Assembly: GCA_029259535.1 (NCBI GenBank)
Contig: JAPHEF010000005.1
Coordinates: 97-64,096, forward strand
DNA length: 64,000 nt
Direction of reading: 5' to 3'
DNA from: Candidatus Alkanophaga liquidiphilum
GTDB taxonomy: Archaea > Halobacteriota > Syntropharchaeia > Alkanophagales > B39-G2
The first letter of the stretch is position 1, and each line of letters starts with the position of its first letter. The notes under the pieces are model-generated. The model ran no database searches and was not told the origin of the DNA. It saw only the letters and a program-made list of their open reading frames with translations. The translations under genes and the position numbers were made by a program. Positions 7,713 through 62,334 of this stretch are shown here, piece by piece.

Positions 7713-8129
7713 GTGGAGGGAGAAAAACCGAATTTGGAAAAATATTCCTGCCCTAATCCTAAGTGCCCGGACTTCGGCGTTTTCGGCGGGGGTAATTTGG
7801 TCTTACATGCACCATATGGCACGCAACGCACCTACCTCCTCAGGTGCAAGACCTGTGGCAGGACGTTCTCGGTGCTTCGGGGAACGCCGTTCTTCAAGCT
7901 ACGAACTCCCAAAGACACCGTCATAAAGGCGTTCTGGCAAATCTCCGAGGGGTACAGCTTCAGGAAGACTGCTAGGGACCTTGGAGTAAGTGAGGATTCT
8001 ATCACAAGATGGACGAACAGGGCTTGTGAGCATGTGGACTTCCTCACGCAATACCTAGAAGAACTGGGGTGGGAAGAAGCACGAATCACGGCATTGTGGT
8101 TTTACATCAAGAAGCGCAGGAAGGTTTAA
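7713..8129 (+). mobile_element. IS1-family InsA-like transposase N-terminal fragment (zinc ribbon + HTH), orphan or truncated
   Basis: CPNPKCPDFG...RCKTCGRTF zinc ribbon followed by HTH GYSFRKTARDLGVSEDSITRW. No InsB/DDE part follows, because pcm starts on the opposite strand. Confidence 0.45.
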
Positions 8130-8132
8130 GGC

Positions 8133-8792
8133 TTAGGCTTCTGGGAAGCCGTATTCCCCGATAAGAGGGACGAAGACGACGCTACACTTCCTGTGCACGA
8201 GCACGCCGTTCTTTTTCTCTACGAGGTAGAGTTGCTGCTCATATGCGTATTTGCCGATGGGAATGACCATCTTACCACCGGTCTTCAACTGCTCCAAGAG
8301 CGGCGGCGGGACGTCGGGCGCTGCGCACGTCACGCAAACCTTGTCGTAGGGCGCCGCCGGCGGGTAGCCGAGCGTGCCGTCGCCGACGATGACGGTGACG
8401 TTCTTGTAGCCCGCACGCTCAAGGTTGTGGCGGGCGGTCTCAGCCAGCGTCCTTATCCGCTCTATGGTGAAGACGTGTCCCGTTTCGCCGACGAGCTCCG
8501 CAATGACAGCGGCGTGGTAGCCGGAGCCGGCTCCGACTTCTAAAACCTTCTCGCCTTTTTTCAGGTCGAGCAGGTCGCACATCTTCGCAACCATGTGCGG
8601 CGCACTTATCGTCTGCCCCTCTCCAATCGGCAGCGGATAGTCTGCATACGCCTTGTCCTGAAGATGTTCAGGCACGAACAAATGGCGAGGCACTTTTTCC
8701 ATGGCACGCAGAACGCGCTCGCTCGCTGCCCCGTAGGAGCGCAACAACCGCACCATGTTCCTTCTTTCCTCTTCAAACTCAGCGACGGGCAT
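8133..8792 (-). CDS. pcm: Protein-L-isoaspartate O-methyltransferase
   Basis: SAM-binding motif [18 protein letters not shown] signature TISAPHMVA. Length 219 aa. Confidence 0.9.
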
Positions 8793-8811
8793 CTAGAGTT
8801 TTTGATAGAGA

Positions 8812-8885
8812 TGGGCCCGATGCGACTCGAACGCATGACCTCCGCCGTGTGAGGGCGGCGTCATAACCACCTAGACCACGGGCCC
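8812..8885 (-). tRNA. tRNA-Val (anticodon CAC)
   Basis: Reverse complement folds as a cloverleaf: acceptor GGGCCCG/CGGGCCC, anticodon stem CCGCC/GGCGG, loop CTCACAC, T-loop TTCGAGT, discriminator A. No encoded CCA. Confidence 0.85.
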
Positions 8886-8938
8886 TTTTCATAAATACGT
8901 TGCTCAAACTTAAAAAACATGGTAAAAAGAAAAAGGAA

Positions 8939-9235
8939 TTATTGAGTAGTGTCCTCGAGCGTGCCGTAGGAGGAGCCTTTTCCGCCTGCTATGATGTTTC
9001 GTCTCTTTTCTATCTCATCCTCCGGCAGCGCACTCTCCTCGCCGACTCGCACCTTTTTCAGTTTTGCTATGCCGATTTCAAACGTTCTCTGACATCCATG
9101 TGAGCAGAAATAATGCTCCTTACCATCGGGCGTCACTGTGACGTAGGGCTCATGGGGTATGTCGCCAGAACCCTCCAACTCATTCCCCTCGTCGTCGTAG
9201 GCACAAATCTCACATTTCACCATCCTCAACACCAC
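8939..9235 (-). CDS. Small zinc-ribbon (TRASH/YHS-like) protein
   Basis: CEIC ... FCSHGC cysteine pairs. 98 aa. Confidence 0.45.
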   Translation of the reverse strand: MVLRMVKCEICAYDDEGNELEGSGDIPHEPYVTVTPDGKEHYFCSHGCQRTFEIGIAKLKKVRVGEESALPEDEIEKRRNIIAGGKGSSYGTLEDTTQ

Positions 9236-9287: not shown

Positions 9288-11363
9288 TCACCCTTCTTCC
9301 TCTTTAGTTTCCGCGAACATGATTCTTGAGTCCCCGGGCGGCAGCACTTTCGCTATTTCGCCGGGCGCTGCGATTTTGCGCATGAGGCGTTTTTCGACGG
9401 CACTCGCCTTCTCCATGAATATTTCAGATATTTTCTTTGCAAGTTCTGCCTTCTCGCAGTCGCCAGGCACGATTTCCACGAGGTATTTCGCATGGCGTTT
9501 CACGGCTTGCGGCGGACCTGCGACGAGCCACGTCTCCTCGTTGATTTCGATGCCGACGGCGAGGCGGAGCGGCACTTTGAAGTAGCGACGGCGTCCTCTG
9601 ACGATGAAGCTGCCCTTCTTGATGTATTCGCCGCTTTCTGGTGTTTTGCTTACCTGCGTGGCGGCGACACTATAACAGTCAGCTTCTGCGAAGCCGTGTT
9701 TCCACAGCGAGGAGTATGCGGCGGCGAACTGCGCCGCTTCGTGTAACGAACGTTCTGGCACGGGACGCCCCTCGGTTTTCAGAAGCACAACAGGAGCGCC
9801 CGGCGTCTCGGTGTGGAAGAAGAGGTCGTCGTTTTCCATGTGTCGCTTCACCAGTTCTTCGTTCGTCGTGGCGTCCCTACCACCGACGCAGAGGAAGCCG
9901 TCCGACGTTCTGAACCAGCGATAGCGCTCGAACCAGCGCTCTCGGCGCTTCACTCTGCGTTGCGGGTAGAGCTCCGCCGCCTTGGTTTTAAGCAACTCCT
10001 GCTCCAATTCCTCTTCCAGCCGTTCCATTTTTGCACGAACTTCCAGAATTGCCTTTTTGACGCCCTCTTTCTTTCGCCGTAGCGTCTTCGCCTCCTCGTA
10101 ATACCGCTGAGCGCTCCGCTGCACGACTTTATGGACTTGCGGCGGTGTCAGCCCGCCCTTTAAAAATGTATCAAAAAACTCGCCAAGCTCAAGCTCTAAC
10201 GCAAAGCCATTCAGCGTTGTTTCCGCCCGTCGTGCTTTTCTGTCGGTTTTGACATTTGCGGTCGCCGATGCGCCGGCGGCAAGCACAGCCTCAACGTCGG
10301 CGTAGTGCGTGTAAAGAGCTTCTGCTTTTTCGATACATGCCGCTTCGCCAGCTTCAAGCTCTTTCAACGCTCGCTCTTGCTCCCCTAAGATTCTTTGGTA
10401 TTTCTCCAGCTTCTCACTTTTCAAGCCCTCAAGCTCGCCACGCACCGTCTCCACGGTGGCAACGGTGAAAAACTCATCAAGCGCCTCGTTGAAGCTTTCA
10501 AATGGTATTTTGCGATTGTTCTCATAAACTCGCAGCTCGAACGGCAGGACAGCTTCGTATTTTTCCCCCTTCATGGCGGCGAGAACGACGTGCGGCTTAA
10601 GTTCATTGCGCAGGAGCGGCGAGAAAAGTTGAACGATGACGGCGTGCAGCGTCTTAACTTGCTCATCACTGAGGCTTGCTGCGTTCGTGTTCTTTTCAAT
10701 CCCTGCCCGCAGGCAAACTTCTTCGGCAAAGATGCCACCGAGGTTGAGCTGCGTGGCGAGCGCCCTGACGACGTCCTTCTTTGATGCCTTAAGAACTTCT
10801 TTTAGCGTCGCCTCGTCGATGCCCAGCGGGCTCGGTCTCGGAGGCGGGAATTCGTAACGCTTGCCCCGCTTGAGCGCTCGTGCTGAGAACTCGACGGTCT
10901 TCAGCGGCAGGAGTATGCAGCGGTCCTCGTCAAGAAGCACGATGTTGCCCTTCGGCAAAAGCTCGGCGACGAGCGTCAGAGTCTTCCTCTCGCCCTCAGC
11001 CCAAGTCTCAACGTCAATGAGAATTATTCTGTCGAAGTCGTGCTGGCGAATCGCAGAGATGCGTCCGCCGCCGATGTGCTTGCGCAGGAACATTGCGAAG
11101 TTCGACGGGAACTTCGGCGAGGGCTTTGGATACTTCGTAAGATGGAAGCGTCTACCAGCCTCGATGATTAAGTCCAACGAGCCTTTTTCCTTATGGTGGA
11201 GCCGCAACCGAATCTCGGTAGGGCTGTGCTGGTATGCCTTTTCGATTCTTGCACCTTTGAGCCACTGAAGCTCGCTGACAACCGCTGCGACATCGGCGCT
11301 GCTCATCCCTTGTTTCATGTTTATAAGTTGGCGGGCAGCAGAAATCTCTTTACCCTGCTGCAC
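9288..11363 (-). CDS. NFACT-family RNA-binding protein (Rqc2/NEMF/FbpA homolog, ribosome quality control)
   Basis: Length around 690 aa. N-terminal NFACT-N-like MSSADVAAVVSEL. Coiled-coil middle. C-terminal DUF814-like region. The biological start may be the internal Met at about 11306 (the ORF starts on GTG). Confidence 0.75.
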   Translation of the reverse strand: MQQGKEISAARQLINMKQGMSSADVAAVVSELQWLKGARIEKAYQHSPTEIRLRLHHKEKGSLDLIIEAGRRFHLTKYPKPSPKFPSNFAMFLRKHIGGGRISAIRQHDFDRIILIDVETWAEGERKTLTLVAELLPKGNIVLLDEDRCILLPLKTVEFSARALKRGKRYEFPPPRPSPLGIDEATLKEVLKASKKDVVRALATQLNLGGIFAEEVCLRAGIEKNTNAASLSDEQVKTLHAVIVQLFSPLLRNELKPHVVLAAMKGEKYEAVLPFELRVYENNRKIPFESFNEALDEFFTVATVETVRGELEGLKSEKLEKYQRILGEQERALKELEAGEAACIEKAEALYTHYADVEAVLAAGASATANVKTDRKARRAETTLNGFALELELGEFFDTFLKGGLTPPQVHKVVQRSAQRYYEEAKTLRRKKEGVKKAILEVRAKMERLEEELEQELLKTKAAELYPQRRVKRRERWFERYRWFRTSDGFLCVGGRDATTNEELVKRHMENDDLFFHTETPGAPVVLLKTEGRPVPERSLHEAAQFAAAYSSLWKHGFAEADCYSVAATQVSKTPESGEYIKKGSFIVRGRRRYFKVPLRLAVGIEINEETWLVAGPPQAVKRHAKYLVEIVPGDCEKAELAKKISEIFMEKASAVEKRLMRKIAAPGEIAKVLPPGDSRIMFAETKEEEG

Positions 11364-11820
11364 AAACTAAGAAGCTACCATGAGTTAAGGCATGGACATG
11401 AAGCCGCGTTACCGTTATCGAACTAAGGTTATTAAGGTCGTTGATGCGATGCGCCCGACGTAGAGATCGGTTATTTTGCTGACGTGGACTCTCCTGAAAT
11501 TCACGCCGAAGAGAAGAGGAGTGAGGAGTATGCAGCGGGGCTCAGGGCGAAGAAATATGTAGAGCAGCGGCTCGCCGAGAACGGCAATGAATGCCTCGTA
11601 AAAACGGAAAAGCGAGCGGGGAGTGGCAGTGCTGGTCGCCACCGTTTACCTCAAAGATTCAGAAAAGTCGCTAAGCAAGGAGCTTCTGGGGGAAGGACCT
11701 GCCCACCGCCCAGCGAGCGGGGCGTCGTGGCTAACTTTGGGGCGCATGGGACAAACTGGGTGTAGCGCAGTAAGTATACAGAACGATAAGCTGCTTAAAC
11801 TGCACACCGCTCCCTGCGCG

Positions 11821-25278: not shown

Positions 25279-26322
25279 ATGTCTGAAATGACGCCTATGG
25301 AGCGTTTCGAGGCGGCGCTGCGTGGTGAGGAGCCCGATAGAGTCCCAGTGATGTTCATGGCGTTAATGATTTGCGCAAGGGAGATAAACGTGGGAATGCG
25401 GGAATATGCCAAAGACGCCGAAAAGCTTGCAAGAGGGCAGCTTGCTTTCTTCGAAAAATACAAGCCGGACGTCGTCACGCCGGGCACGAACGTGTGTATG
25501 ACGGCGGAAGCCTTCGGCACGAAGACGAAGTTCCATGAGGGACTTACACTTCCCGTGACTGAGGAGTATGCAGTCAAGACTGCTGAAGACTGGGAAAAGA
25601 TTGAGGTGCCGGACCCGAAAAGAGCTGGGCGCCGTGGTGTCTATCTCGGCGCTGTTGAAATAATCTCTGAGCGTCTGAGAGGCGTGCCGATAATGGGCTT
25701 CATCATAAGCCCGCTGACGCTTGCGAGCTGGGTTGCTGACCTTTCAAGAGTCGTAGTGGACATGAAGAAAAATCCAGATTTGCTGCATAAAGGATTGAGG
25801 ACGCTGACCGATGCCGTGAAAGCAAGGATTGAGACCTCAATAGACGCAGGCGTGACGCACTTCATGCTCGTCTGCACACGAGCGAGCCGGGAGCTCTTCA
25901 AGGAGGAGCAGTATGCGGAGTTTGGCATGCCTTACGACTTAGAGGTGTTAAGCCACGCCGTCAAGCGTAAAGTGCCCATCGTCGCCCACGTCTGCGGCGT
26001 CGAGCCATTACTTAGCCTTATAATTAGGAAATACCCAATAGTGGGCGTGAACTGGTGGGACAGGGGCACGAAATTCAGCCTAAAGGACGTGAAAAATGAA
26101 TATGAGGTTACGGTGATAGGCGGCGTTGACCAGAACCGCACGCTGCTTATGGGGACGCCTGAGGACGTTGAGCGGGAGGCTGCCGATGCTATAAAGAATG
26201 CGGCGCCCGGAGGCAGGTTCATACTTTCTGCGGGCTGCGAGCTACCTGCGATCGCGCCGCCTGAGAATATAAAGGCGGTAGTGCGTGCCGCCGAGAAGTA
26301 TGGGAAATATGTGAAGGGATGA
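25279..26322 (+). CDS. Methylcobamide:CoM methyltransferase-like (uroporphyrinogen decarboxylase / MtaA-MtbA family), paralog 1
   Basis: URO-D fold. Conserved RVPVMF, HVCG, GGRFILSAGCELP. Confidence 0.8.
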   Translation: MSEMTPMERFEAALRGEEPDRVPVMFMALMICAREINVGMREYAKDAEKLARGQLAFFEKYKPDVVTPGTNVCMTAEAFGTKTKFHEGLTLPVTEEYAVKTAEDWEKIEVPDPKRAGRRGVYLGAVEIISERLRGVPIMGFIISPLTLASWVADLSRVVVDMKKNPDLLHKGLRTLTDAVKARIETSIDAGVTHFMLVCTRASRELFKEEQYAEFGMPYDLEVLSHAVKRKVPIVAHVCGVEPLLSLIIRKYPIVGVNWWDRGTKFSLKDVKNEYEVTVIGGVDQNRTLLMGTPEDVEREAADAIKNAAPGGRFILSAGCELPAIAPPENIKAVVRAAEKYGKYVKG

Positions 26323-27416
26323 ATATGAAGGTGAAAAAGGAGAAGATGACCTCTGCGGATAGAGTAATGCTGGCAATGGGCTTAGACGAGCCTGACAGGG
26401 TGCCAGTGGGCTGCTTACCACTGACCATCGGTGCGAGGATGGCGGGCGTCGCTGTTGACAAATATGCGCTGGATGCGAAACTTATCGCAAAAGGGCAGCT
26501 CGTTTTTTACGAAAAGTTCGGCGTTGATTTCTTGTGTCCGATGTCGGATATTGCGATGGCTGCAGAGGCGTGGGGCACGAAAACAAAGTTCGTGAAGACT
26601 TCCACGCCCTATACCGTCGAATATGCTGTCAAAAAGCCTGAAGACTGGGAGAAGATTGACAAGATTTCTGCATCAGAGTGGTGGGAGGAAGCTGGAAGGA
26701 TTCCTTTAGTTCTGGAGGCGCAGGACATCATCATTGATAAAGTGGAGTCAACAGTGCCTGTAATAGGATTCCTCGTGAGCCCAATAACGTTGGCATCGTG
26801 GATCGGCGGCTTGGACCGGGTTTCGATAGACATGATAAGGGCGCCGGACCTCCTGCACCGAGCGTTAAGGGTTCTCACGGAATCAATGATAGAAATGGCG
26901 AAGGCGTTGTATGACAACGGCATCTGCGTCTGTTATATGGTCTGCACGAGGGCGACTCGCGATATTTACACACTTGAGCAATACATGGAGTTCGGCACGC
27001 CCTACGACCTCAAGCTCATCGAGGGCGTGAAGCATTTCATGGTTCTCATGGGGCACGTCTGCGGCAGAGAACCGTTCCTTGAAATCCTAGCGCCTTTGTA
27101 TTCCTTCGTCGGCATTAACTTCTGGGACCGGGGCTCTAAATACGACATCGCATTTGCGAAACGCAAATATGGACGCATGACTCCGGTAATAGGTGGCGTC
27201 GACCAAACAAGAACGTTGCTCTATGGCACGCCCGAAGAGGTGGAGGCGGAATGTCTCGACGCCATCAGAAAGGCGGCGCCGGGAGGTGGCTTCATCCTAG
27301 CGCCCGGTTGCGAGCTCTCCCTTGAGACGCCTGACGAGAACATAGCGGCAATGGTGAACGCCGCACGCAAATATGGCACTTATCCTTTGGATGAGAAAAT
27401 ATTAGGAGGTGCGTGA
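26319..27416 (+). CDS. Methylcobamide:CoM methyltransferase-like (MtaA-MtbA family), paralog 2
   Basis: Same family as the upstream gene (RVPVGCLPL, HVCG, GGGFILAPGCEL). Overlapping start (ATGA coupling). Confidence 0.8.
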   Translation: MNMKVKKEKMTSADRVMLAMGLDEPDRVPVGCLPLTIGARMAGVAVDKYALDAKLIAKGQLVFYEKFGVDFLCPMSDIAMAAEAWGTKTKFVKTSTPYTVEYAVKKPEDWEKIDKISASEWWEEAGRIPLVLEAQDIIIDKVESTVPVIGFLVSPITLASWIGGLDRVSIDMIRAPDLLHRALRVLTESMIEMAKALYDNGICVCYMVCTRATRDIYTLEQYMEFGTPYDLKLIEGVKHFMVLMGHVCGREPFLEILAPLYSFVGINFWDRGSKYDIAFAKRKYGRMTPVIGGVDQTRTLLYGTPEEVEAECLDAIRKAAPGGGFILAPGCELSLETPDENIAAMVNAARKYGTYPLDEKILGGA

Positions 27417-30238: not shown

Positions 30239-32071
30239 ATGCAGCTCGTAAAGGGATACGAGGATTGGATGTATAAGGAGTTGAGGTTGTCGCCTTGTAG
30301 CGGTTACAATCCCCCTGACGAAATACCGGTGAGGTGTGAGCAGATAGACATTGCAGTTTTCAACACCTTTGACGAGATCATCAACAAGCATCCCAGGGAG
30401 AAGCTCTGTGGTTTCTTCCACAGGCATGTCGGTAGGAAGAATAGAACGATACTCCCGTGGCTCCACTGGCTGGATGGCAGCGTCGGCGTATTCGCCACGC
30501 TCGGGCAATACCCCCGATCGAAGGGGGAGAGGGCGGTCATTTGCGCCCCCCTGTATAACCAGCATGATAGGTTAGAATGTGAATGTGGCACTGACTACCA
30601 CGTGCCCACGCTTGAACACGTTACGTCCGTTGCGTATACGAATTACACCCTCTTAGGGCATTTCGCATTCCACCTCAACGGCGGCTTCTGGCGGATGGAA
30701 GACACCATCTGGGGCTCGAACACCGTTGTGGTGGCAGCAGCGCTCAACCACGTCATCCAATCGAAGCCGCCATACAACGACGAGAAGATTTTCGAGCTCT
30801 GGGAGGAGGCGAAGTGGCGGAAGGCAAAGATCAGAAGACTAAAGGCCTTGAAAAGGTTCCTGAGGGAGCCGACGCTTTTGAACCTGAGAAGAGCCGAGCT
30901 CGAAGCGGCGAAAGCTGACTACTGGCCGTATAGGCGGCTGGTCGAGGTGCGATGGCCTGAGCGGTACTTGAGCGTCTGGGAGATAAAGCAGGAGATAAAA
31001 AGGCTGAAGAAAGACGCAGAAGCGAAGGCGAGGCGAGCAGTGGGTGAGCTTTTCAAGAAGGTCGTGTATTTGCCAAAGCCCGGCAATGAGGAGGTCATGT
31101 TCCAGCCGCTCCACCCCGAGGGCAAAGTCGTTTTCAAGCTAATAGGTGAGCTTTCGGAGCTGGAGGATGAAATAAGGAAGGAGAAGGAGAGGATAAAGGA
31201 GACAAGACACGAACGTCGCCGGTTGATGCGGAAGATGCAGCGCCTCATAAAAGAGGCAATAAAGAGGTATCCCGCTCAGATAAAGGAGGAGAAAGCTTCC
31301 CTCAGAGCGCCGAGAGAACGACTTTACAGGAAGGCGTTAAAGGAGCAAGGACGCATCATTGAGTATTTGGGGGCGAAGGAGAATCTAATTATGTTGCGGG
31401 ACATGGTCATAGCGAAGCACCCGCTGCTCAGAGACAAGCGCATATACTTCGTGGGCGTGAAGCCGTGGTTCGCTCACATTTGTGCAGAGCGTCGTCAGGA
31501 GATAAAGTTGCGTGGTGACTATTGGGAAGAAGAACTTTATCCTATATGGTTCGAGCGGCGGTGGCATAGAGCGCACATACGGCGGGATATGAAGGGGAGC
31601 TGCAAGGTGCGGTGGCTTGGCAGCCTCGTGTGTCCAACGCTTCTCTCTTTGATACTGAGCAACGACTCACAAGGCGATCACCAGAATAGCATCACAAGGC
31701 TCGTGTTCAGGATGCGGCATCAGAACAGAGGGATGGGAGAGTGGAAAGTTCTCTCAAGAGACACACGCAAGAAAATTTCATATCCGCTGATGATAAGACC
31801 GATACGTCTCAAAAACGGACACGTAGTTTACGGGCAGGTTTTCGGCGCCGAGGAGTGCCGTCCGCTCCGCCCGCCTGACATCTGGAGGTGCCGGTATTAC
31901 TCGCTGTGGGCATGTTTCTTCTTAGAACTTCTTAACAGCACAGGATTGCACAAGATAGTATTCTGGAACTCAACACGCAATCACCGCTACCGCCGCCCGT
32001 TCGTGCGGTTCAACTTCAGCTACAACTTCCTCGACCGCATCGTGGACTGGTTCATCCTGAACGTTTGGTAG
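30239..32071 (+). CDS. Hypothetical 610-aa protein: Cys/His/Trp-rich N- and C-terminal regions flanking a long K/R/E coiled coil; ORFan with atypical codon usage
   Basis: Long uninterrupted ORF. AGG/AGA Arg and ATA Ile codons are frequent, unlike neighbouring genes. No recognisable family from sequence. Confidence 0.5.
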   Translation: MQLVKGYEDWMYKELRLSPCSGYNPPDEIPVRCEQIDIAVFNTFDEIINKHPREKLCGFFHRHVGRKNRTILPWLHWLDGSVGVFATLGQYPRSKGERAVICAPLYNQHDRLECECGTDYHVPTLEHVTSVAYTNYTLLGHFAFHLNGGFWRMEDTIWGSNTVVVAAALNHVIQSKPPYNDEKIFELWEEAKWRKAKIRRLKALKRFLREPTLLNLRRAELEAAKADYWPYRRLVEVRWPERYLSVWEIKQEIKRLKKDAEAKARRAVGELFKKVVYLPKPGNEEVMFQPLHPEGKVVFKLIGELSELEDEIRKEKERIKETRHERRRLMRKMQRLIKEAIKRYPAQIKEEKASLRAPRERLYRKALKEQGRIIEYLGAKENLIMLRDMVIAKHPLLRDKRIYFVGVKPWFAHICAERRQEIKLRGDYWEEELYPIWFERRWHRAHIRRDMKGSCKVRWLGSLVCPTLLSLILSNDSQGDHQNSITRLVFRMRHQNRGMGEWKVLSRDTRKKISYPLMIRPIRLKNGHVVYGQVFGAEECRPLRPPDIWRCRYYSLWACFFLELLNSTGLHKIVFWNSTRNHRYRRPFVRFNFSYNFLDRIVDWFILNVW

Positions 32072-55617: not shown

Positions 55618-56178
55618 ATGGAGAAGGTAGGACGCAAAAAGTTTATTTTTGTTAAATACGAAGATATAAACATGGTGAAGAGGACGAGAATAATAAGCGA
55701 CCCTGCGGACTTTGTTCCCTTACTGCGCATATTCCTGTTCACCGAATACAGGAGGATATTTGAAGAATTAAGCAACGGCTGGAAAACTGAGGAGGAGCTG
55801 AGGCGGGAGCTTGGCGAGGATGTGAAGGATGGGCTGCACATTCTTATGAGGTGTGGGCTGCTGGAGAGCCGCTGGCGGGCGCCGGAGCCTGGGAAGAAGC
55901 CAGTGATGGAGTATCATACTTCCTATTCCAACGTGGTAACGAATTTCCAGTGTTCTCTCAAGGAGTTCGCGGACCTAGTGGACGTTGCTTACATGGATGA
56001 TAAACAGTTTGAATATTTAGAGAAGCCAGTGATGGATTTAATCGCCGCCGGGCGGAATTCCATAAACGCTATGTCTAAAACTCTTGACTTGAGCGTAATT
56101 TCCTTAAAGGCGATAGTAAAAAGGTCTCATAGGATGTGCATAAGAGGACATAAGATAGAAATTGTCAAGGGGAATTGA
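55618..56178 (+). CDS. Hypothetical protein, possible winged-helix DNA-binding regulator (start probably at the internal Met near 55672)
   Basis: Helix-rich segment LLRIFLFTEYRRIFEELSNGWKTEEELRRELGEDVKDGLHILMRCGLLE. Divergent from the CrtI-like/DUF116 genes. Confidence 0.35.
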   Translation: MEKVGRKKFIFVKYEDINMVKRTRIISDPADFVPLLRIFLFTEYRRIFEELSNGWKTEEELRRELGEDVKDGLHILMRCGLLESRWRAPEPGKKPVMEYHTSYSNVVTNFQCSLKEFADLVDVAYMDDKQFEYLEKPVMDLIAAGRNSINAMSKTLDLSVISLKAIVKRSHRMCIRGHKIEIVKGN

Positions 56179-56190
56179 TTAAAGGGACCC

Positions 56191-57501
56191 CTATCCAGCT
56201 AAGTCCTTCTTCACCCTCCTAACGACTTTCAGCACGCCCGCAGCGATACCTTCGGTCATTATTCTGCCACGGGCTTTGCAACCGTCTCCCACCATGTAAA
56301 GACCTCTTACTGGCAGCCTTACATCGAGATCCTCGCCTTGTATCGCCCAATTCACAGGCCAGTCGTCCCTGAAGGTGTGCGCGCCAAGAATTTCGCAATT
56401 GTCCTCAAAATGCGGCAGCAACTCTTTCAAATCTTCGACACCAAGCTCTATTTCTTTCCGCACGTCGCCGCCCCTGAACACCTGATGCGTCAGCAGCAAG
56501 TATTTGCCCTTAGGTGCCAGTGGCTGTTCGTATTGTATTAATCCAGAAATACGTCTTGCTGAAGGTGTGAGCACAACTTCGCAGCTCCTAAAAAGCTTTT
56601 CGGAGCTGCTGACGCATATCGTTATGCCTTCGGCAGCTTCGACGGAGCCCGCACGCCTCAAAAGTTCCGAAACTGCGTCTTTCTCGCTCATCATCCTGAG
56701 CGTCTCCGACGGGCTTGCATTACTGACTACGCATCTGCACTTTATTTCCATCTGCTCGTCGCCGATGCTTGCAGATACGCCGCGAATCTCACCGCTTTGA
56801 ACTAATATTCCATTTACAGGGACTTGTGTTAATATTTCTCCACCGCTCTCAATAATTACTTGCTTAAACCTCTCAACAACTCCTTTACATCCGTTTTCAG
56901 GGAAGAGGGGCTTGCCCAGCAGCACTATGTTCCTTATGAAACGCATCCCTTCACTTTTGGAAACTTTTTCGAGCGGAGCACTCATCGAAAAACCTATGAG
57001 CGCCTTAAAGCATTTGTAAAGTTCTTCATTTCTAAACTTCCCTAAAAATTCGCCAAATGACGTGTATTCCGTGTGGATGCCGAAAAAAGCTGAAGCAATA
57101 ACCTTTATGAAAGACTCTCTTGCCTCATGTGATTTAAACGTTTTGAATGCGGTTAACAAGTTTGAAACCCTATGGCGGCGGTCTTCCCAGAGGAACTCAG
57201 CCCATGCTTCCGATGTTTTTCCATGAATGCCTATGGCTTTTAAGGCTCTTGCGAAAACACCTTTTGAGTGGGGTATTACGTGTAGAGCTCCTGTGGGAAG
57301 CTCGTATCCTTTGTAATTGAAGCTCGAGAACCTCCCTCCTAAAAATGACAACTTCTCAAGAACTAACGTTTTAAAATGCTTGCAGAGGAGCGCTGCGGCG
57401 AGCAGCCCGCCTATACCCGCGCCTATAACTATGATGTCATATTCTCGGCGGATATCAAGCGTGTTGGGCATACCCCCATGCATCTTAAACATCCAACGCA
57501 A
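56191..57501 (-). CDS. FAD-dependent oxidoreductase of the phytoene desaturase (CrtI)-like family
   Basis: YDIIVIGAGIGGLLAA dinucleotide-binding motif. Amine-oxidase/CrtI-like length (about 430 aa). Likely start at MPNTLD (about 57471). Confidence 0.65.
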   Translation of the reverse strand: MRWMFKMHGGMPNTLDIRREYDIIVIGAGIGGLLAAALLCKHFKTLVLEKLSFLGGRFSSFNYKGYELPTGALHVIPHSKGVFARALKAIGIHGKTSEAWAEFLWEDRRHRVSNLLTAFKTFKSHEARESFIKVIASAFFGIHTEYTSFGEFLGKFRNEELYKCFKALIGFSMSAPLEKVSKSEGMRFIRNIVLLGKPLFPENGCKGVVERFKQVIIESGGEILTQVPVNGILVQSGEIRGVSASIGDEQMEIKCRCVVSNASPSETLRMMSEKDAVSELLRRAGSVEAAEGITICVSSSEKLFRSCEVVLTPSARRISGLIQYEQPLAPKGKYLLLTHQVFRGGDVRKEIELGVEDLKELLPHFEDNCEILGAHTFRDDWPVNWAIQGEDLDVRLPVRGLYMVGDGCKARGRIMTEGIAAGVLKVVRRVKKDLAG

Positions 57502-57597
57502 TTCTTCACATCTATTTCAGCACGCCCCCACACCGTAATGGCTCCGCTCGGGCATACCATCTCGCAGTAGCCGCAGCCCGTGCAGTCGCCTTCTATC

Positions 57598-58266
57598 TTA
57601 AGCATGATTCTGAGCCAGCATCTCAGGAGTCAGCAGGAGTTCCTCTTTTACTTTGTCCCAGTTGACATCGGTCATTATACAGCCCGCCCTTGCGAGAAGC
57701 ACCCCGATCATCGGAATGCCCTTCGCCGTCACGTATCTCATTACCTCGTGGAGGTCCTTATGGCACGCAACGCCGAGCGCCGCCTCTGGCTTTCTGTCTT
57801 TGACAACACGCTTCACGAACTCGCCGCCGGGCGCTATACTCACCATAATTCCGTGCCGCTCGCAGATCTCCATGATTTCAGCGATGTTGCACCGTCCACA
57901 CCGCCTGCACAAAATACCCTCGCCTGGCTTCGTCATCGCCGGACAGTCTATATCGCGGAGACATTGCGGCAGGAACAGAATGCGACGCTCGAAGGGCGTT
58001 GCTGCATATTTTTCTCGGTAAGCATGATTCAACAGCGTAATTTGCACCTCGTCCACGACGTTCGGGTTGATGCGCAGGCTGCCGAGAAGCGTCTTCAGCG
58101 GTCTGTAAAAGAACGTTATCAGCGAGAACGCAAGCTTCGGGAACAGGAACCGCTTGTATTTGTATATGTATGCGCCGATGGCGGCGGCAGCAATCGCCAA
58201 AACTAAGAATATGAAAAGCAGCGTTACGAATATTTGCCCCAGGACGATATAGATGTTCAGCGCCAT
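57598..58266 (-). CDS. DUF116-family Cys-rich membrane protein, paralog 1
   Basis: N-terminal TM helices. Conserved LPQCLR...CP...C.RCGRC...GVACH. Confidence 0.55.
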   Translation of the reverse strand: MALNIYIVLGQIFVTLLFIFLVLAIAAAAIGAYIYKYKRFLFPKLAFSLITFFYRPLKTLLGSLRINPNVVDEVQITLLNHAYREKYAATPFERRILFLPQCLRDIDCPAMTKPGEGILCRRCGRCNIAEIMEICERHGIMVSIAPGGEFVKRVVKDRKPEAALGVACHKDLHEVMRYVTAKGIPMIGVLLARAGCIMTDVNWDKVKEELLLTPEMLAQNHA

Positions 58267-58976
58267 GCTACCTCCCCCGCCTTTTCAACCTCGCCGTCGG
58301 TGCCCGCAAACAATTTTAGGAGCAGCTCGTCAAAATCAACAATGGTATTGATGCAGCCTGTCTTCTTTAAGGGGACGCCCTGCGCCGGTATGCCTGCGAG
58401 CTTTGCGTTCAGCATGCCCTCATGGAGGTTCGGGTAACAAGCGACGCCCACTACCGCTCTTGGTCTCGCTGAGATAAGCACTCGCTTCGCAAAAGTCCCG
58501 CCCGGCACGACGAATACTCTTATTCCCAACCTCTTGCACGCTGCATTTATCCTCGCAATCTCGCATCGCCCGCACTCTACGCAGTGGAATCCGTCCACGG
58601 AACTCAACTTCGCAGGGCACTCAAGCGAGCGCATGCACTGCGGCAGCAGCAAAACTCGCTCCTCCGTTGGCACTGTCGCAAAATCTGCGTAATTTATGCA
58701 GTTCTTGAGCTCCACGCTTATCCTATCAACCAGCTCAGAATCTATTTTGAAGAACGAAATTATCCGTTTTGCGGGCTCGTATAACAAGTCTATCATGAAA
58801 GATATGAAGTTGGGAAAGAGTATTCTCCCGGTTCTAAGCGCAATATAGCCTGCAAGTAGAATTACGGTAAGGAGTGTGAAGAACACTATGAGCAAGCCCA
58901 AGAAAATCTTGCCGAGCAATTCAAGGCTGATTAAACTGATGTATTCAAACAATGCTCTCCCCTCACATCTTTTCAT
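58257..58976 (-). CDS. DUF116-family Cys-rich membrane protein, paralog 2
   Basis: Same architecture and motifs (LPQCMR...CP...CVECGRC...GVACY). Overlaps paralog 1 by 10 nt. Confidence 0.55.
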   Translation of the reverse strand: MKRCEGRALFEYISLISLELLGKIFLGLLIVFFTLLTVILLAGYIALRTGRILFPNFISFMIDLLYEPAKRIISFFKIDSELVDRISVELKNCINYADFATVPTEERVLLLPQCMRSLECPAKLSSVDGFHCVECGRCEIARINAACKRLGIRVFVVPGGTFAKRVLISARPRAVVGVACYPNLHEGMLNAKLAGIPAQGVPLKKTGCINTIVDFDELLLKLFAGTDGEVEKAGEVAWR

Positions 58977-59157
58977 GCGTTAGGGCAATATATAAGACTT
59001 ACTGCGGCTTGAATGTCTTCGAAATAAAAACCCTGACGATAAAATACGTTTCAAAGGCTTGAATAAAAAATTAGAAACGATTTGCAAACTATTTTACAAA
59101 TAAAGGATAAATAGAGAGGCGAAATCTCCTGGGTTCTATGAGGACATAGACGGGGCG

Positions 59158-59643
59158 TCATGCCTTTTTGAAGCAATACCAGTATCTCCTCATCTCTCCA
59201 GGTCCCAATATTTCAAGAGGCTCCCATTCTACTTTCGTGCCGATTTTTACCTCCTCGGAACTCAGGTCGAACATTATACCACTCACTTGGATGCCATTCT
59301 TTGGATAATCGCCGAACCTCACTATGGCTATTATAAACGGCACCGTGTCCTGGAACTGCAAGGGGGCGCCCGCCCGCACCTCCGTGAAGGCATAAACCTC
59401 CCCGACCTTAGGAATATCCACCCACTCGAGATTTTCGCTCAAGCACTCGCTGCAGACCGCCACAGGTGGGTATAACAACTTTCCACAATCCTTGCACTTC
59501 GTAGTCGTGAAACGCCCCTCCGCCAAATTCTTGTAGAATTGGTAAATTCTCGTCGCATCCGGACCTTTTTCGTCCTGCTGCTCCCAGAGGTCTAAGAGTG
59601 GCGGGAAGGGTATGGTGGCGGGTATGCGTATCGACTTGACCAT
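59158..59643 (-). CDS. DUF35 OB-fold/Zn-ribbon protein (thiolase scaffold partner)
   Basis: CKDCGKLLYPPVAVCSEC rubredoxin-like ribbon plus OB fold. Immediately downstream of thiolase. Confidence 0.7.
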   Translation of the reverse strand: MVKSIRIPATIPFPPLLDLWEQQDEKGPDATRIYQFYKNLAEGRFTTTKCKDCGKLLYPPVAVCSECLSENLEWVDIPKVGEVYAFTEVRAGAPLQFQDTVPFIIAIVRFGDYPKNGIQVSGIMFDLSSEEVKIGTKVEWEPLEILGPGEMRRYWYCFKKA

Positions 59644-59647
59644 CGTT

Positions 59648-60847
59648 TCACCCCCCTAATTTTATTTCCTTCCGATTCTCGATGCTGTAAGCCATTATGT
59701 GGTGGAGGGATGCCAGTCCGCTCAGGTTATGAGTGATGGCTATTCTGGCGTTGCTGCCGACGTATCTTTCCTTGGGGACGCTGCCCCTGAACTGGTTAAA
59801 TACCTCCCAAGCTTGTCGGACGCCTGTGGCACCGAGGGGGTGCCCGAAGCTGAGGAGCCCGCCGCTGGGATTCACGGCGACGTCACCGCCGATGTAGCTG
59901 CGCCCCTCCTCAACGAACTTTCCACCTTCGCCTTTCTCGCAGAAACCAAGCTCTTCATACTCCATTATCTCGCTAATGGTAAAGCAGTCATGCAACTCTG
60001 CGAAATCAATGTCCCTAGGTCCGATGCCGAGCATGTTGTAAAGTTCTTTTGCCGCCCGCCTCAGGGCGGGCCACTCGCTGAGGTTGCCCATTTGGTTGAC
60101 GGTGTCGGCGGCGAAGACGCACTGCGTGCCGCCGATAATCCAAACAGGCGTGTCTGTGAGCTTCTTTGCTATTTCTTCAGCTGCAAGGACGACGGCGGCA
60201 GCGCCGTCCGTCATGCCGCAGCAATCGAAAAGACAAAGTGGCGGGGCAACGACTTTCGAATTTATCACGGCGTCGACGCTAAATCGCTTCGTGAACTGCG
60301 CATACGGGTTATAGGAGCCGTAAGTGGAATTTTTCTCCCTAACAACCGCCATTTGCTCCCTTGTCGTGCCATAATCATGCATGTGCCGCTGGGCGACCAT
60401 TGCGAAGAAGGGCGGCGCCGTCATTCCGCTGGGGCCATCGAACTCTCGGTTAGCGACGTTTATCATGCTCGTCTGGCTTATAGCCATGTTTTTGGAAGTC
60501 ATTTTTTCAACGCCAATGACGAAAGCGATATCGCTAAGCCCCGTGGCGATCGCGAGCCACGCATACCTGATTGCAGCTTGCCCGCTGGCGCAAGCTACTT
60601 CGGTCCTCGCTACGACTCTCGTCGGGCGCAAGCCAAGAAGTTCGGCGACAAGAGGCGCTACATGCGTCTGATACGCCCAGCGTTCGGGCTGCGCCGCCCC
60701 AACGATGAGAGAATCCACTTCTTTCTTATCAAGATTCGGCACGTCCTTGAATGCGGCTTTTCCTGCCTCCTGCACGAGATCCTTCCAGCTCGCCTCCCGC
60801 ACGCCGAATTTCGTTATCCCCGCCCCTACTATGGCGACGTTACGCAT
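59648..60847 (-). CDS. Thiolase (acetyl-CoA C-acetyltransferase / SCP-x-like, archaeal type)
   Basis: N-terminal VAIVGAGITKFG. Active-site Cys region. C-terminal thiolase motifs. 399 aa. Confidence 0.8.
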   Translation of the reverse strand: MRNVAIVGAGITKFGVREASWKDLVQEAGKAAFKDVPNLDKKEVDSLIVGAAQPERWAYQTHVAPLVAELLGLRPTRVVARTEVACASGQAAIRYAWLAIATGLSDIAFVIGVEKMTSKNMAISQTSMINVANREFDGPSGMTAPPFFAMVAQRHMHDYGTTREQMAVVREKNSTYGSYNPYAQFTKRFSVDAVINSKVVAPPLCLFDCCGMTDGAAAVVLAAEEIAKKLTDTPVWIIGGTQCVFAADTVNQMGNLSEWPALRRAAKELYNMLGIGPRDIDFAELHDCFTISEIMEYEELGFCEKGEGGKFVEEGRSYIGGDVAVNPSGGLLSFGHPLGATGVRQAWEVFNQFRGSVPKERYVGSNARIAITHNLSGLASLHHIMAYSIENRKEIKLGG

Positions 60848-60915: not shown

Positions 60916-62334
60916 ATGAGGGAGATAGGGATTTCAATGAGTCTTGATGAAGTTTTCAACCCCTGCTCGGTGGTCGTGGTCGGCGCCTCTCCTGATGAAC
61001 GTAAGATGGGACACCAGTGCGTTAAAAGCTTGGTGGAGGCATTTGACGGGGAGATATACGTGGTGAACCCACATGCCAGCCGTATCTTAGGAATTAACTC
61101 TTACAAGTCGGTGAGGCAAATACCAGGAAGCGTGGACCTCGCAATCGTCGTCGTCCCCTCGAGCGTTGTGCTTTCCGCAGTTCGTGAGTGTGCGGAGAAA
61201 GGCGTCAAGGGCGCCGTCATAATCACAGGAGGCTTCAAAGAGGCGAGCGCCGCCGAGCGTGACGTCGACACAGGCGGCGAGCTTCTACAAGAGCAACTTG
61301 CAGCCTTGGCAGAAGAGGCAGGTATGAGGATTATAGGCCCGAATACGTTCGGATTCGTCAACGTCGGTGTGATAAATGCCTCGTTCTCGCCGGTTTTCAA
61401 CGGGCTGCGGAAGGGGCGTATCGCAATGGTTGGGCAGAGCGGCGGTGTCTGCCACATTTTTGCTTACATGGCAATGAACGAGGGTGTGGGGCTTAACAAG
61501 CTTGTGGGGCTTGGCAATAGATGCAATGTGGAATTCTACGACATTTTAGAGTATTTAGAGGAAGACGATGAAACGGATACGATTGCTATGCATATTGAGG
61601 GCATAGACGAGCCAAGGAAGCTGATGAACGCAGCGAGAAGAGTCGCAAAGAAGAAGCCTGTCGTTGCATACAAGGTAGGGCGAACAAGAGCTGTGGAGAG
61701 AGCGGCACTCTCGCACACGGGCTCGATGGCGGGCGAATATAAGCTTTACGACGCTGCGTTCCGCCAATCTGGTGTCGTCACGGTTAATAGCTGCGAGGAG
61801 CTGTTCGATGCTGCTAAGATACTTTCGTTGTGTCAGGACTGCTTGCCGAAGGGCAGGAAGGTTGCGATAATTTCGACGCAGGCGGGCCCCGGCATAATAC
61901 TGACGGACGAGTGCACGAGCGGCGGCTTGCAGCTTGCGAGGTTCTCTGAGGCTACTGAAAAGAAGCTAAAAAGGTTGCTGCCGCCACTGACGATAAGGGA
62001 GAACCCAGTGGACATGGCGTTCATCAGGGATGCGGGGCTCTGGCTGGAAGTTGTAAGGACGGTCTTAGCAGATGACGGCGTGGATGCCCTGATAATTTTC
62101 AACTTGTACCACCCCTCGTTCTTGCTGCCGCCTGAGGAAATTGTGGATGCGAGGCGCTGTTACGGGAAGCCACTAATCATGTGCACGAGCTTCCCGCACG
62201 AGCTTATGCTGAAAGAGAAAATTAAGTTAGAAGAGGAGGGCGTTCCTGTGTATAGCACGCCCGAACGAGGAGCTAAGGCGCTCATCACTCTTATAAAATA
62301 TGCGGAGATGAAAAGGAGGATTGAAAGCGGTTAA
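60916..62334 (+). CDS. ADP-forming acyl-CoA synthetase alpha subunit (CoA-binding + succinyl-CoA-synthetase-like domains)
   Basis: CoA-binding Rossmann domain SVVVVGASPDERKMG. Ligase-CoA domain. Confidence 0.7.
   Translation: MREIGISMSLDEVFNPCSVVVVGASPDERKMGHQCVKSLVEAFDGEIYVVNPHASRILGINSYKSVRQIPGSVDLAIVVVPSSVVLSAVRECAEKGVKGAVIITGGFKEASAAERDVDTGGELLQEQLAALAEEAGMRIIGPNTFGFVNVGVINASFSPVFNGLRKGRIAMVGQSGGVCHIFAYMAMNEGVGLNKLVGLGNRCNVEFYDILEYLEEDDETDTIAMHIEGIDEPRKLMNAARRVAKKKPVVAYKVGRTRAVERAALSHTGSMAGEYKLYDAAFRQSGVVTVNSCEELFDAAKILSLCQDCLPKGRKVAIISTQAGPGIILTDECTSGGLQLARFSEATEKKLKRLLPPLTIRENPVDMAFIRDAGLWLEVVRTVLADDGVDALIIFNLYHPSFLLPPEEIVDARRCYGKPLIMCTSFPHELMLKEKIKLEEEGVPVYSTPERGAKALITLIKYAEMKRRIESG

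Follow-up and report, generated by a model that had tools for sequence, protein, structure and literature searches.

A DUF116 pair, a small ferredoxin and a flavoprotein in one tight operon of Candidatus Alkanophaga liquidiphilum: a possible membrane-tethered electron-transfer module for polyprenyl chains

The 64-kb stretch of archaeal DNA analysed here (64,000 nucleotides (nt), referred to as the window) contains a compact cluster of four genes on the minus strand, which encode two paralogous proteins of the DUF116 family (Pfam PF01976), a small ferredoxin and a flavoprotein predicted to bind flavin adenine dinucleotide (FAD). An NCBI protein of Candidatus (Ca.) Alkanophaga liquidiphilum matches the flavoprotein with 100% identity, which identifies as the source this alkane-oxidising thermophile of the Syntrophoarchaeia (PMC10322722). 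DUF116-A (58976-58257; 239 amino acids (aa)) is the first gene and is followed by its paralogue DUF116-B (58266-57598; 222 aa), the ferredoxin gene (57605-57429; 58 aa) and, as the last gene, the flavoprotein gene (57501/57483-56191; 430 aa from the NCBI start at 57483). Successive reading frames overlap by 10 nt (A/B), 8 nt (B/ferredoxin) and, with the NCBI start of the flavoprotein, 55 nt (ferredoxin/flavoprotein), which argues for translational coupling of the unit, and identical overlaps are found across the four genes of a 77%-identical sister species (locus L006). Judged from its sequence, the cluster is one tight four-gene operon. An initial annotation of this DNA had placed the DUF116 pair downstream of the flavoprotein gene; all four genes lie on the minus strand, and the pair is upstream (5') of it.

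With 157.6 bits (A) and 147 bits (B), both DUF116 proteins score far above the PF01976 cut-off of 25 bits, and they share 36% identity. The two cysteine-rich, membrane-anchored and overlapping paralogues with LPQC, CP, CxxCGRC and GVAC motifs that the initial annotation had described are borne out: the motif series LPQC/CP/CxxCGRC/GVAC/GC is present in each protein, and hydropathy places N-terminal hydrophobic spans, the presumed anchors, at residues 12-54 in A and 1-37 in B. Seven cysteines (C114, C120, C132, C135, C138, C180 and C208) are invariant in 43 family members and are all present in both window paralogues; where B-type sequences are added to the alignment, six stay invariant and C120 almost so. 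Structure prediction, which the same annotation had proposed, gave an AlphaFold2 (AF2) model of DUF116-A (pLDDT 92.3, pTM 0.82) with a long N-terminal helix (residues 5-49), two more helices and then an α/β domain, in which the invariant cysteines follow β1 (C114), β3 (C180) and β4 (C208) or sit in an inserted CxxCxxC loop. In the model, these positions form the C-terminal edge of the β-sheet, the usual cofactor edge of a flavodoxin-like fold. This placement agrees with an earlier prediction for arCOG02078/COG1852/PF01976, the same family as the window DUF116 proteins, as a flavodoxin-like, metal-binding and membrane-anchored electron-transfer protein (Makarova et al. 2015, PMC5898192). When the model was compared with the PDB by Foldseek, nothing significant was found, the best matches being CheY-like receivers and B12-binding domains (E ~0.04-0.1), and the DUF116 sequence profile found no relative in the PDB.

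The third gene of the operon had been overlooked in the initial annotation. It is a 58-aa open reading frame (ORF), MLKIEGDCTGCGYCEMVCPSGAITVWGRAEIDVKNCVGCLRCMGVCPTRLISAENMTS, between DUF116-B and the flavoprotein gene, and bears two CxxCxxCxxxCP motifs, CTGCGYCEMVCP and CVGCLRCMGVCP. PF00037 matches the protein over two stretches (E = 5.7e-15), which identifies it as a 2x[4Fe-4S] ferredoxin of the bacterial type. Its ATG start codon overlaps the stop codon of DUF116-B by the 8 nt noted above (ATGCTTAA). The ORF is kept in the sister species (L006, 7879-8055) with equal overlaps and about two-thirds identical residues (manual count), and both motifs are also found in Ca. A. volatiphilum (L011). 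The 55-nt overlap with the flavoprotein gene, which is read in the -1 frame, occurs in both Alkanophaga species (window 57429-57483; L006 8001-8055) and could be a site of gene fission or frameshifting, as the two parts form one fused protein elsewhere. A -1 frameshift that fuses the two products in Alkanophaga itself was considered and set aside: no canonical slippery heptamer was seen and the linker would be far shorter than in the natural fusions. An earlier idea that the DUF116 pair replaces the ferredoxin of flavoprotein homologues was dropped once the 58-aa ORF had been found.

The last gene of the operon had been annotated as an FAD oxidoreductase of the phytoene desaturase family. The FAD oxidoreductase part is supported by a GAGIGG motif, which fits the GxGxxG FAD fold, a match to PF13450 (NAD_binding_8; 45.9 bits) and a full-length yet weak match to PF01593 (Amino_oxidase; residues 30-422, 35.7 bits vs a cut-off of 19.8). 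As to the family, the match to TIGR02734 (crtI_fam) is confined to residues 23-71 and reaches 43.5 bits vs a cut-off of 238, the protein stays well under the cut-offs in the NCBIfam scan as a whole, and the top 25 of the 33 NCBIfam models that it hits do not include TIGR02032 (geranylgeranyl reductase (GGR)). Matching structures in the PDB cover the full length and are 3KA7 from M. mazei (2.9e-57, residues 17-424) and 3NRN, which is P. furiosus PF1083 (5.2e-44). A family profile raises these to 7e-119 and 3.5e-97, respectively; CrtD, plant PDS and CrtI come next (1e-25 to 1e-19), and protoporphyrinogen and amine oxidases rank below them. By these comparisons the flavoprotein belongs to the 3KA7/PF1083 family of the CrtI/PDS-related superfamily, for which ‘CrtI-like’ is a fair label at the superfamily level, and lies outside the phytoene desaturase family. 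Neither 3KA7 (labelled ‘oxidoreductase’) nor 3NRN, both products of structural genomics, has an assigned function, so these matches name a fold family and not a chemistry, and reduction, desaturation, hydration (as by the hydratase Has) and isomerisation are all candidate reactions.

Flavoprotein homologues are seemingly rare, with 27 matches at ~33% identity in a word-indexed search. Several of them carry a fused N-terminal 2x[4Fe-4S] domain (P0003, P0009 and P0020) and another (L004) is preceded by a gene for a 58-aa ferredoxin with a 4-nt overlap, which ties the flavoprotein family to a small iron-sulphur (Fe-S) redox partner. A distant homologue is found in an operon of a GGR-like gene, a PF04240 carotenoid-biosynthesis protein and a ferredoxin-flavoprotein (L134), a UbiA prenyltransferase is encoded two genes from a second (L133) and a third lies in tandem with another Amino_oxidase protein of 546 aa (L132), while the contexts at L001, L003 and L004 are otherwise uninformative. 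None of the seven contexts of homologues outside Alkanophaga contains a DUF116 gene, and the pairing of DUF116 with a 3KA7-family flavoprotein is found in the genus Alkanophaga only (window, L006 and L011). In the metagenome-assembled genome (MAG) of Ca. Alkanophaga volatiphilum, the thiolase and DUF35 genes next to the operon and the flavoprotein gene are split into several frames (L011, 5200-10500), breaks that suggest indels from assembly or sequencing, or else pseudogenes; the genes are intact in L006, a contig from another sample.

The two DUF116 proteins are themselves more widely conserved as a pair. Scanning one genome per GTDB species with an A-type query sequence gave 40 loci, which were pooled with contigs fetched by exact protein; being seeded with a narrow A-type alignment, the survey is biased towards the Syntrophoarchaeia. 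An A-type copy is followed directly by a B-type copy at 34 of these syntrophoarchaeial loci plus the window, and DUF116-A orthologues are 52-62% identical in the anaerobic methanotrophic group ANME-1 and 47% identical in Syntrophoarchaeum. Natural A-B fusions of 465-502 aa are encoded at L018, L035 and L051 and found in the protein clusters P0083-85 (from JGI, ENA and Logan). Their A halves are ~57% identical to window A and their B halves ~50% to window B, which places the A/B duplication before the split of Alkanophaga and ANME-1. A single DUF116 copy is present in the deep-branching ANME-1c (L042 and L050), in Bathyarchaeia and in one Planctomycetota MAG. The conserved tandem arrangement and the natural fusions suggest a heterodimer of DUF116-A and DUF116-B. 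A GlcD-like flavoprotein gene upstream of the pair in a Syntrophoarchaeum contig (L010) was rejected as a candidate partner, as it is not conserved in S. butanivorans (L043).

In one broad clade of ANME-1, the gene that follows the pair belongs to a different flavoenzyme family. An intact gene of the GGR family (~385 aa) lies after DUF116-B on the same strand at 17 loci and a remnant of it at three more, so that a GGR paralogue is found directly after the pair at 20 of the 37 Syntrophoarchaeia loci whose sequence extends far enough downstream. Most of these genes begin 6-80 nt after DUF116-B, one of them after 259 nt. The paralogue scores 233 bits vs 158.8 for TIGR02032, does not reach the equivalog thresholds set for the canonical lipid reductase and finds as its best PDB match the digeranylgeranylglycerophospholipid (DGGGPL) reductase of T. 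acidophilum, with FixC second (1.1e-20). The A-B-GGR unit persists through rearranged flanks, with at least five different contexts that include CBS pairs, TiaS, TBP, anthranilate synthase and SpoIIM/lactamase genes upstream and argininosuccinate lyase and GHMP kinase genes downstream, and GGR also follows a fused A-B gene (L051). No classical ferredoxin motif occurs within 2.5 kb of the DUF116 genes at the ANME-1 GGR loci. At one locus (L034), two GGR paralogues lie downstream of the pair (7929-9083 and 10293-11405), 77% and 76% identical to the copy at L030. Other ANME-1 loci have CDC48 or HisRS downstream of the pair. At the three Alkanophaga loci, the ferredoxin and flavoprotein genes take the position that GGR has in ANME-1, and the 64-kb window contains no GGR gene.

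Further links to isoprenoid metabolism are found beyond the GGR loci. A polyprenyl synthetase is encoded two genes from the DUF116 pair at L013, and HMG-CoA reductase, GHMP kinase and DUF92 genes surround it at loci of the L007 type. An exhaustive DUF116 profile search gave 2,033 representatives at E <= 1e-3, and among the best 150 of these, which were inspected for fusions, 9-10 are DUF116-polyprenyl synthetase fusions, confirming and extending the single such fusion noted in 2015 (PMC5898192). In another protein, P0291, a Fer4 dicluster domain is joined to DUF116. A preprint lists DUF116 in a terpenoid cluster of Bipolaricaulota, where ispH, a squalene-hopene cyclase gene and a polyprenyl synthetase gene are its neighbours (10.1101/2025.11.21.689855). 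A metagenome scan for single-copy DUF116 of the ‘LPHC’ type yielded 80 loci with mostly housekeeping neighbours; six of 79 loci encode a true crtI_fam protein (462 bits, cut-off 238) together with a lycopene-cyclase-domain protein, in one case also with a UbiA prenyltransferase. Being not co-oriented with DUF116, these neighbours are the weaker evidence. The co-occurrence with CrtI-like proteins on which the initial annotation had placed weight is thus seen for true crtI_fam members at these six loci, and does not extend to the window flavoprotein outside Alkanophaga. As far as gene order and fusions tell, the recurring theme around DUF116 is isoprenoid chains at the membrane, often with redox partners, and the membrane redox or isoprenoid module that had been proposed is supported by this recurrence with prenyl enzymes (GGR, crtI_fam and polyprenyl synthetase) in several separate settings and by the ferredoxin link of the flavoprotein family.

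Several other DUF116 proteins and neighbourhoods were encountered in these searches. The DUF116 protein P0230 (593 aa) is split by an intein that bears a LAGLIDADG endonuclease domain; inteins usually occupy conserved functional sites of important proteins. P0225 (538 aa) and P0212 (552 aa) combine DUF116, in opposite orders, with one and the same ~330-aa domain (69% mutual identity), whose FDDMLD and LDDMLD motifs recall the Asp-rich motifs of terpenoid synthases; the domain has no Pfam match at 1e-4 and no sequence match in the PDB. Five more proteins (P0241, P0250, P0257, P0249 and P0226) have DUF116 without the N-terminal anchor and with a C-terminal extension of ~280 aa, of a family not known, that contains a hydrophobic segment. 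At L068, L080, L094 and L109, a 410-aa CCG-domain/Fer4_8 protein (HdrD/GlpC-like) is encoded directly downstream of single-copy DUF116 on the opposite strand, and at L135 DUF116 is followed by a 173-aa protein, again of a family not known, and a 729-aa Fer4_5 polyferredoxin.

We propose that the operon encodes a membrane-tethered chain from Fe-S clusters, by way of the ferredoxin, to FAD that acts on the C=C bonds of polyprenyl chains, a reading to which we assign a probability of roughly 45%. In the proposed model, DUF116-A and DUF116-B would heterodimerise, tethered by their N-terminal helices to the cytoplasmic side of the membrane, and each flavodoxin-like domain would bind one or more Fe-S clusters via the seven invariant cysteines at the C-terminal edge of its β-sheet. 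The dimer would then dock the peripheral flavoenzyme and/or pass electrons through the small ferredoxin to its FAD, and the flavoenzyme would saturate the prenyl chain or perform on it a chemistry that requires reduced FAD. In ANME-1, the pair may serve the GGR paralogue directly, without a ferredoxin.

A number of points weigh against this model. Fe-S binding by DUF116 is deduced from the cysteine pattern, and the number of membrane helices, one or two per protein, leaves the topology uncertain. For a natural A-B fusion, AF2 gave a model of only moderate quality (pLDDT 72.9, pTM 0.61). As GGR adjacency is confined to one clade, in which DUF116-A is at least 70% identical, it amounts to about one evolutionary event, and the neighbourhood evidence altogether rests on few independent events; most single-copy DUF116 genes have housekeeping neighbours such as TFIIB, Gar1 and succinyl-CoA ligase. 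A pure donor role fails to explain the fusions to polyprenyl synthetase, a non-redox enzyme; a scaffold or a catalyst would account for them no less well. Finally, Alkanophaga already has a ferredoxin, so that the DUF116 pair would not strictly be needed as a donor.

Ferredoxin-dependent prenyl reductase systems are already known: the GGR of M. acetivorans requires a ferredoxin encoded beside it, and the in vivo reductant of most other archaeal GGRs is not known (Isobe et al. 2014, summarised in PMC10821996; PMC10821996). As in that system, a presumed FAD enzyme of prenyl chains adjoins a small Fe-S protein that would supply electrons in the Alkanophaga operon, and the ANME-1 GGR follows the DUF116 pair. 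Unlike in M. acetivorans, the Fe-S partner is, or includes, a predicted membrane-anchored heterodimer of a family without known function, and the Alkanophaga flavoenzyme is of the CrtI-related superfamily and not of the GGR family. CrtI, CrtD, PDS and Has share this FAD superfamily with the window flavoprotein, and each of these four works on polyprenyl chains at the surface of the membrane; in contrast to CrtI/CrtD/PDS, the window protein is ~70 residues shorter, is accompanied by a ferredoxin and scores the 43.5 vs 238 bits given above for crtI_fam. Pairs of the FixC/FixX type likewise combine a flavoprotein of the GGR superfamily with a small Fe-S partner, but here no electron-transfer flavoprotein genes are present and the partner belongs to a different family. 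The 2015 analysis of arCOG02078 had linked the family to energy metabolism by its sulfite/nitrite reductase-like and ArsA-like neighbours, and the A/B pair, the A-B fusions and the link to GGR and CrtI-like enzymes are not described there (PMC5898192). In the literature searched, we found no report of a conserved heterodimeric DUF116 module joined to such reductase systems, of its link to GGR in ANME-1 or of the four-gene Alkanophaga operon.

How isoprenoid chains are saturated and tailored determines the properties of archaeal membranes and gives rise to lipid biomarkers in wide use. A link between DUF116 and prenyl flavoenzymes would, if true, give a large orphan family a role and bring a further component into the lipid biosynthesis of ANME and alkane-oxidising archaea, and it makes DUF116 a candidate for the missing partner of the enzymes that saturate archaeal lipids. 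On a wider and clearly more speculative view, which we think somewhat unlikely, the A/B pair represents a new class of membrane-anchored Fe-S protein through which archaeal prenyl-chain flavoenzymes (GGR paralogues in ANME-1, the CrtI-like enzyme in Alkanophaga) are docked and receive their electrons in vivo, and DUF116 more broadly belongs to the core machinery of isoprenoid-lipid tailoring, being conserved in archaea and anaerobic bacteria and joined to polyprenyl synthetase in some of them. This would answer, for these lineages, what reduces archaeal GGRs in vivo.

Other explanations of the same genes have to be considered. It is possible, if rather unlikely in our view, that DUF116 is a non-redox membrane organiser that tethers isoprenoid enzymes (polyprenyl synthetase, GGR and CrtI-like), its cysteines binding a structural or regulatory metal. 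Such a role would suit the N-terminal fusion of an anchor-bearing DUF116 to polyprenyl synthetase, which needs no electrons (PMC5898192), the dedicated ferredoxin that Alkanophaga already encodes for the flavoprotein, and the choice of DUF116 partners from several unrelated enzyme families. However, seven invariant cysteines with a CxxCxxC motif at a cofactor edge exceed the usual structural Zn site, the Fer4 fusion, the Fer4_5 polyferredoxin and the CCG/Fer4_8 neighbours point to redox chemistry, and the ANME-1 GGR loci have no other Fe-S partner nearby.

We regard as unlikely that the flavoprotein is a redox-neutral enzyme working with reduced FAD, either a hydratase like Has (hydroxyarchaeol synthase, M. 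acetivorans MA0127) or an isomerase like CRTISO, and that the ferredoxin and DUF116 only keep its FAD reduced. CRTISO and oleate hydratase do need reduced FAD without net redox change, and the closest solved relative of the flavoprotein, 3KA7, comes from Methanosarcina mazei and has no assigned function. Has, a methanogen protein of the phytoene desaturase family, adds water to a double bond of a geranylgeranyl chain (10.1101/2025.10.20.683597; PMC12777485). MA1492 and MA1486, considered as its locus tags, are wrong, MA_1486 being Tes and MA0127 the tag given in the literature (PMC12777485). Against a hydratase, the flavoprotein family is also found in Pyrococcus (3NRN/PF1083) and in bacteria (Aminicenantes). 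Neither Pyrococcus nor bacteria such as Aminicenantes are known to produce hydroxyarchaeol, which is typical of ANME-2 and Methanosarcinales and not of the ANME-1 lineage, and Has reportedly worked in E. coli without a dedicated ferredoxin.

Improbable as well is that DUF116 is itself the catalyst, an Fe-S enzyme that would work like IspH or IspG, using a site-differentiated cluster to convert a prenyl substrate, and to which the ferredoxin and the flavoprotein (or GGR) would contribute a reductase system or the next step. The polyprenyl synthetase fusions, read as Rosetta stones, suggest consecutive pathway steps, and the Bipolaricaulota gene lies beside ispH and squalene-hopene cyclase (10.1101/2025.11.21.689855); the three cysteines of CxxCxxC could also leave one iron free for a substrate. 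Yet GGR and CrtI-type enzymes are known to be catalysts themselves and lack the NAD(P)H-binding module that they would need as reductases of a second enzyme, and in the PDB comparisons DUF116 has no structural or sequence likeness to known Fe-S enzymes.

Upstream of the operon, ORF listing and Pfam/NCBIfam scans identify a thiolase (60847-59648) and a DUF35/ChsH2 OB-fold protein (59643-59158), both on the minus strand and separated from DUF116-A by an AT-rich intergenic gap of 181 nt (59157-58977) that probably contains their terminator and the operon's own promoter. T-runs are seen behind the DUF35 stop codon and a TATATA box at 58989-58994 upstream of DUF116-A; neither the box nor its flanks vary between the window, L006 and L011, and within the four-gene unit the conserved TATATA is located upstream of A only. 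The gap would thus act as a promoter region, and the thiolase and DUF35 genes are likely a separate transcription unit. TATATA lies only 13 nt from the annotated ATG of DUF116-A and the ANME-1 orthologues begin ~15 residues later (window 58950-58976), so that the true start, or that of a leaderless transcript, may be downstream of 58976. That the adjacency is lineage-specific and without meaning for lipids, the flavoprotein and ferredoxin serving alkane or fatty-acyl oxidation next to the thiolase/DUF35 pair and an ADP-forming acetyl-CoA synthetase, is very improbable: the flavoprotein-DUF116 pairing is indeed confined to Alkanophaga, thiolase, DUF35 and the synthetase alpha subunit are encoded directly upstream and the conversion of alkyl-coenzyme M to acyl-CoA in these archaea is unexplained (PMC10322722), but the four-gene translational coupling is kept between species, the AT-rich gap and conserved TATA-like box set the operon apart from thiolase/DUF35, the pair is conserved in ANME-1, which oxidise methane and lack long alkyl substrates, and the four genes are not found in the text-format supplementary tables of the Alkanophaga paper (PMC10322722).

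The thiolase/DUF35 pair (59158-60847) has no adjacent HMG-CoA synthase gene and is divergent from the gene for the ADP-forming acetyl-CoA synthetase alpha subunit (60916-62334, plus strand). The thiolase is slightly under the PRK06064 cut-off (409 vs 420 bits), and mevalonate synthesis and beta-oxidation are both conceivable roles.

On the other side of the operon lies the small winged helix-turn-helix (wHTH) gene that the initial annotation had noted and that matches PF09824 (‘ArsR’) with 178 bits (55618-56178, plus strand). It had been read as divergent from the cluster and as the module's own regulator; the first claim is wrong and the second finds no support. The gene converges on the flavoprotein gene, with 12 nt between the two stop codons, and is divergent from ftr (55579-54674, minus strand), which begins 38 nt away and shares its upstream region. 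The PF09824 gene is present only at the Alkanophaga loci and was not found at the DUF116 loci of ANME-1 or Syntrophoarchaeum.

Elsewhere in the window, two long ORFs on the plus strand (2682-4856, 724 aa, and 30239-32071, 610 aa) have no Pfam match at 1e-5. Two tandem genes of the URO-D family (25279-27416, plus strand; 347 and 365 aa, with a 4-nt overlap) are followed by a transglutaminase-like gene; URO-D pairs in relatives of methanogens are often methyltransferases and not haem enzymes.

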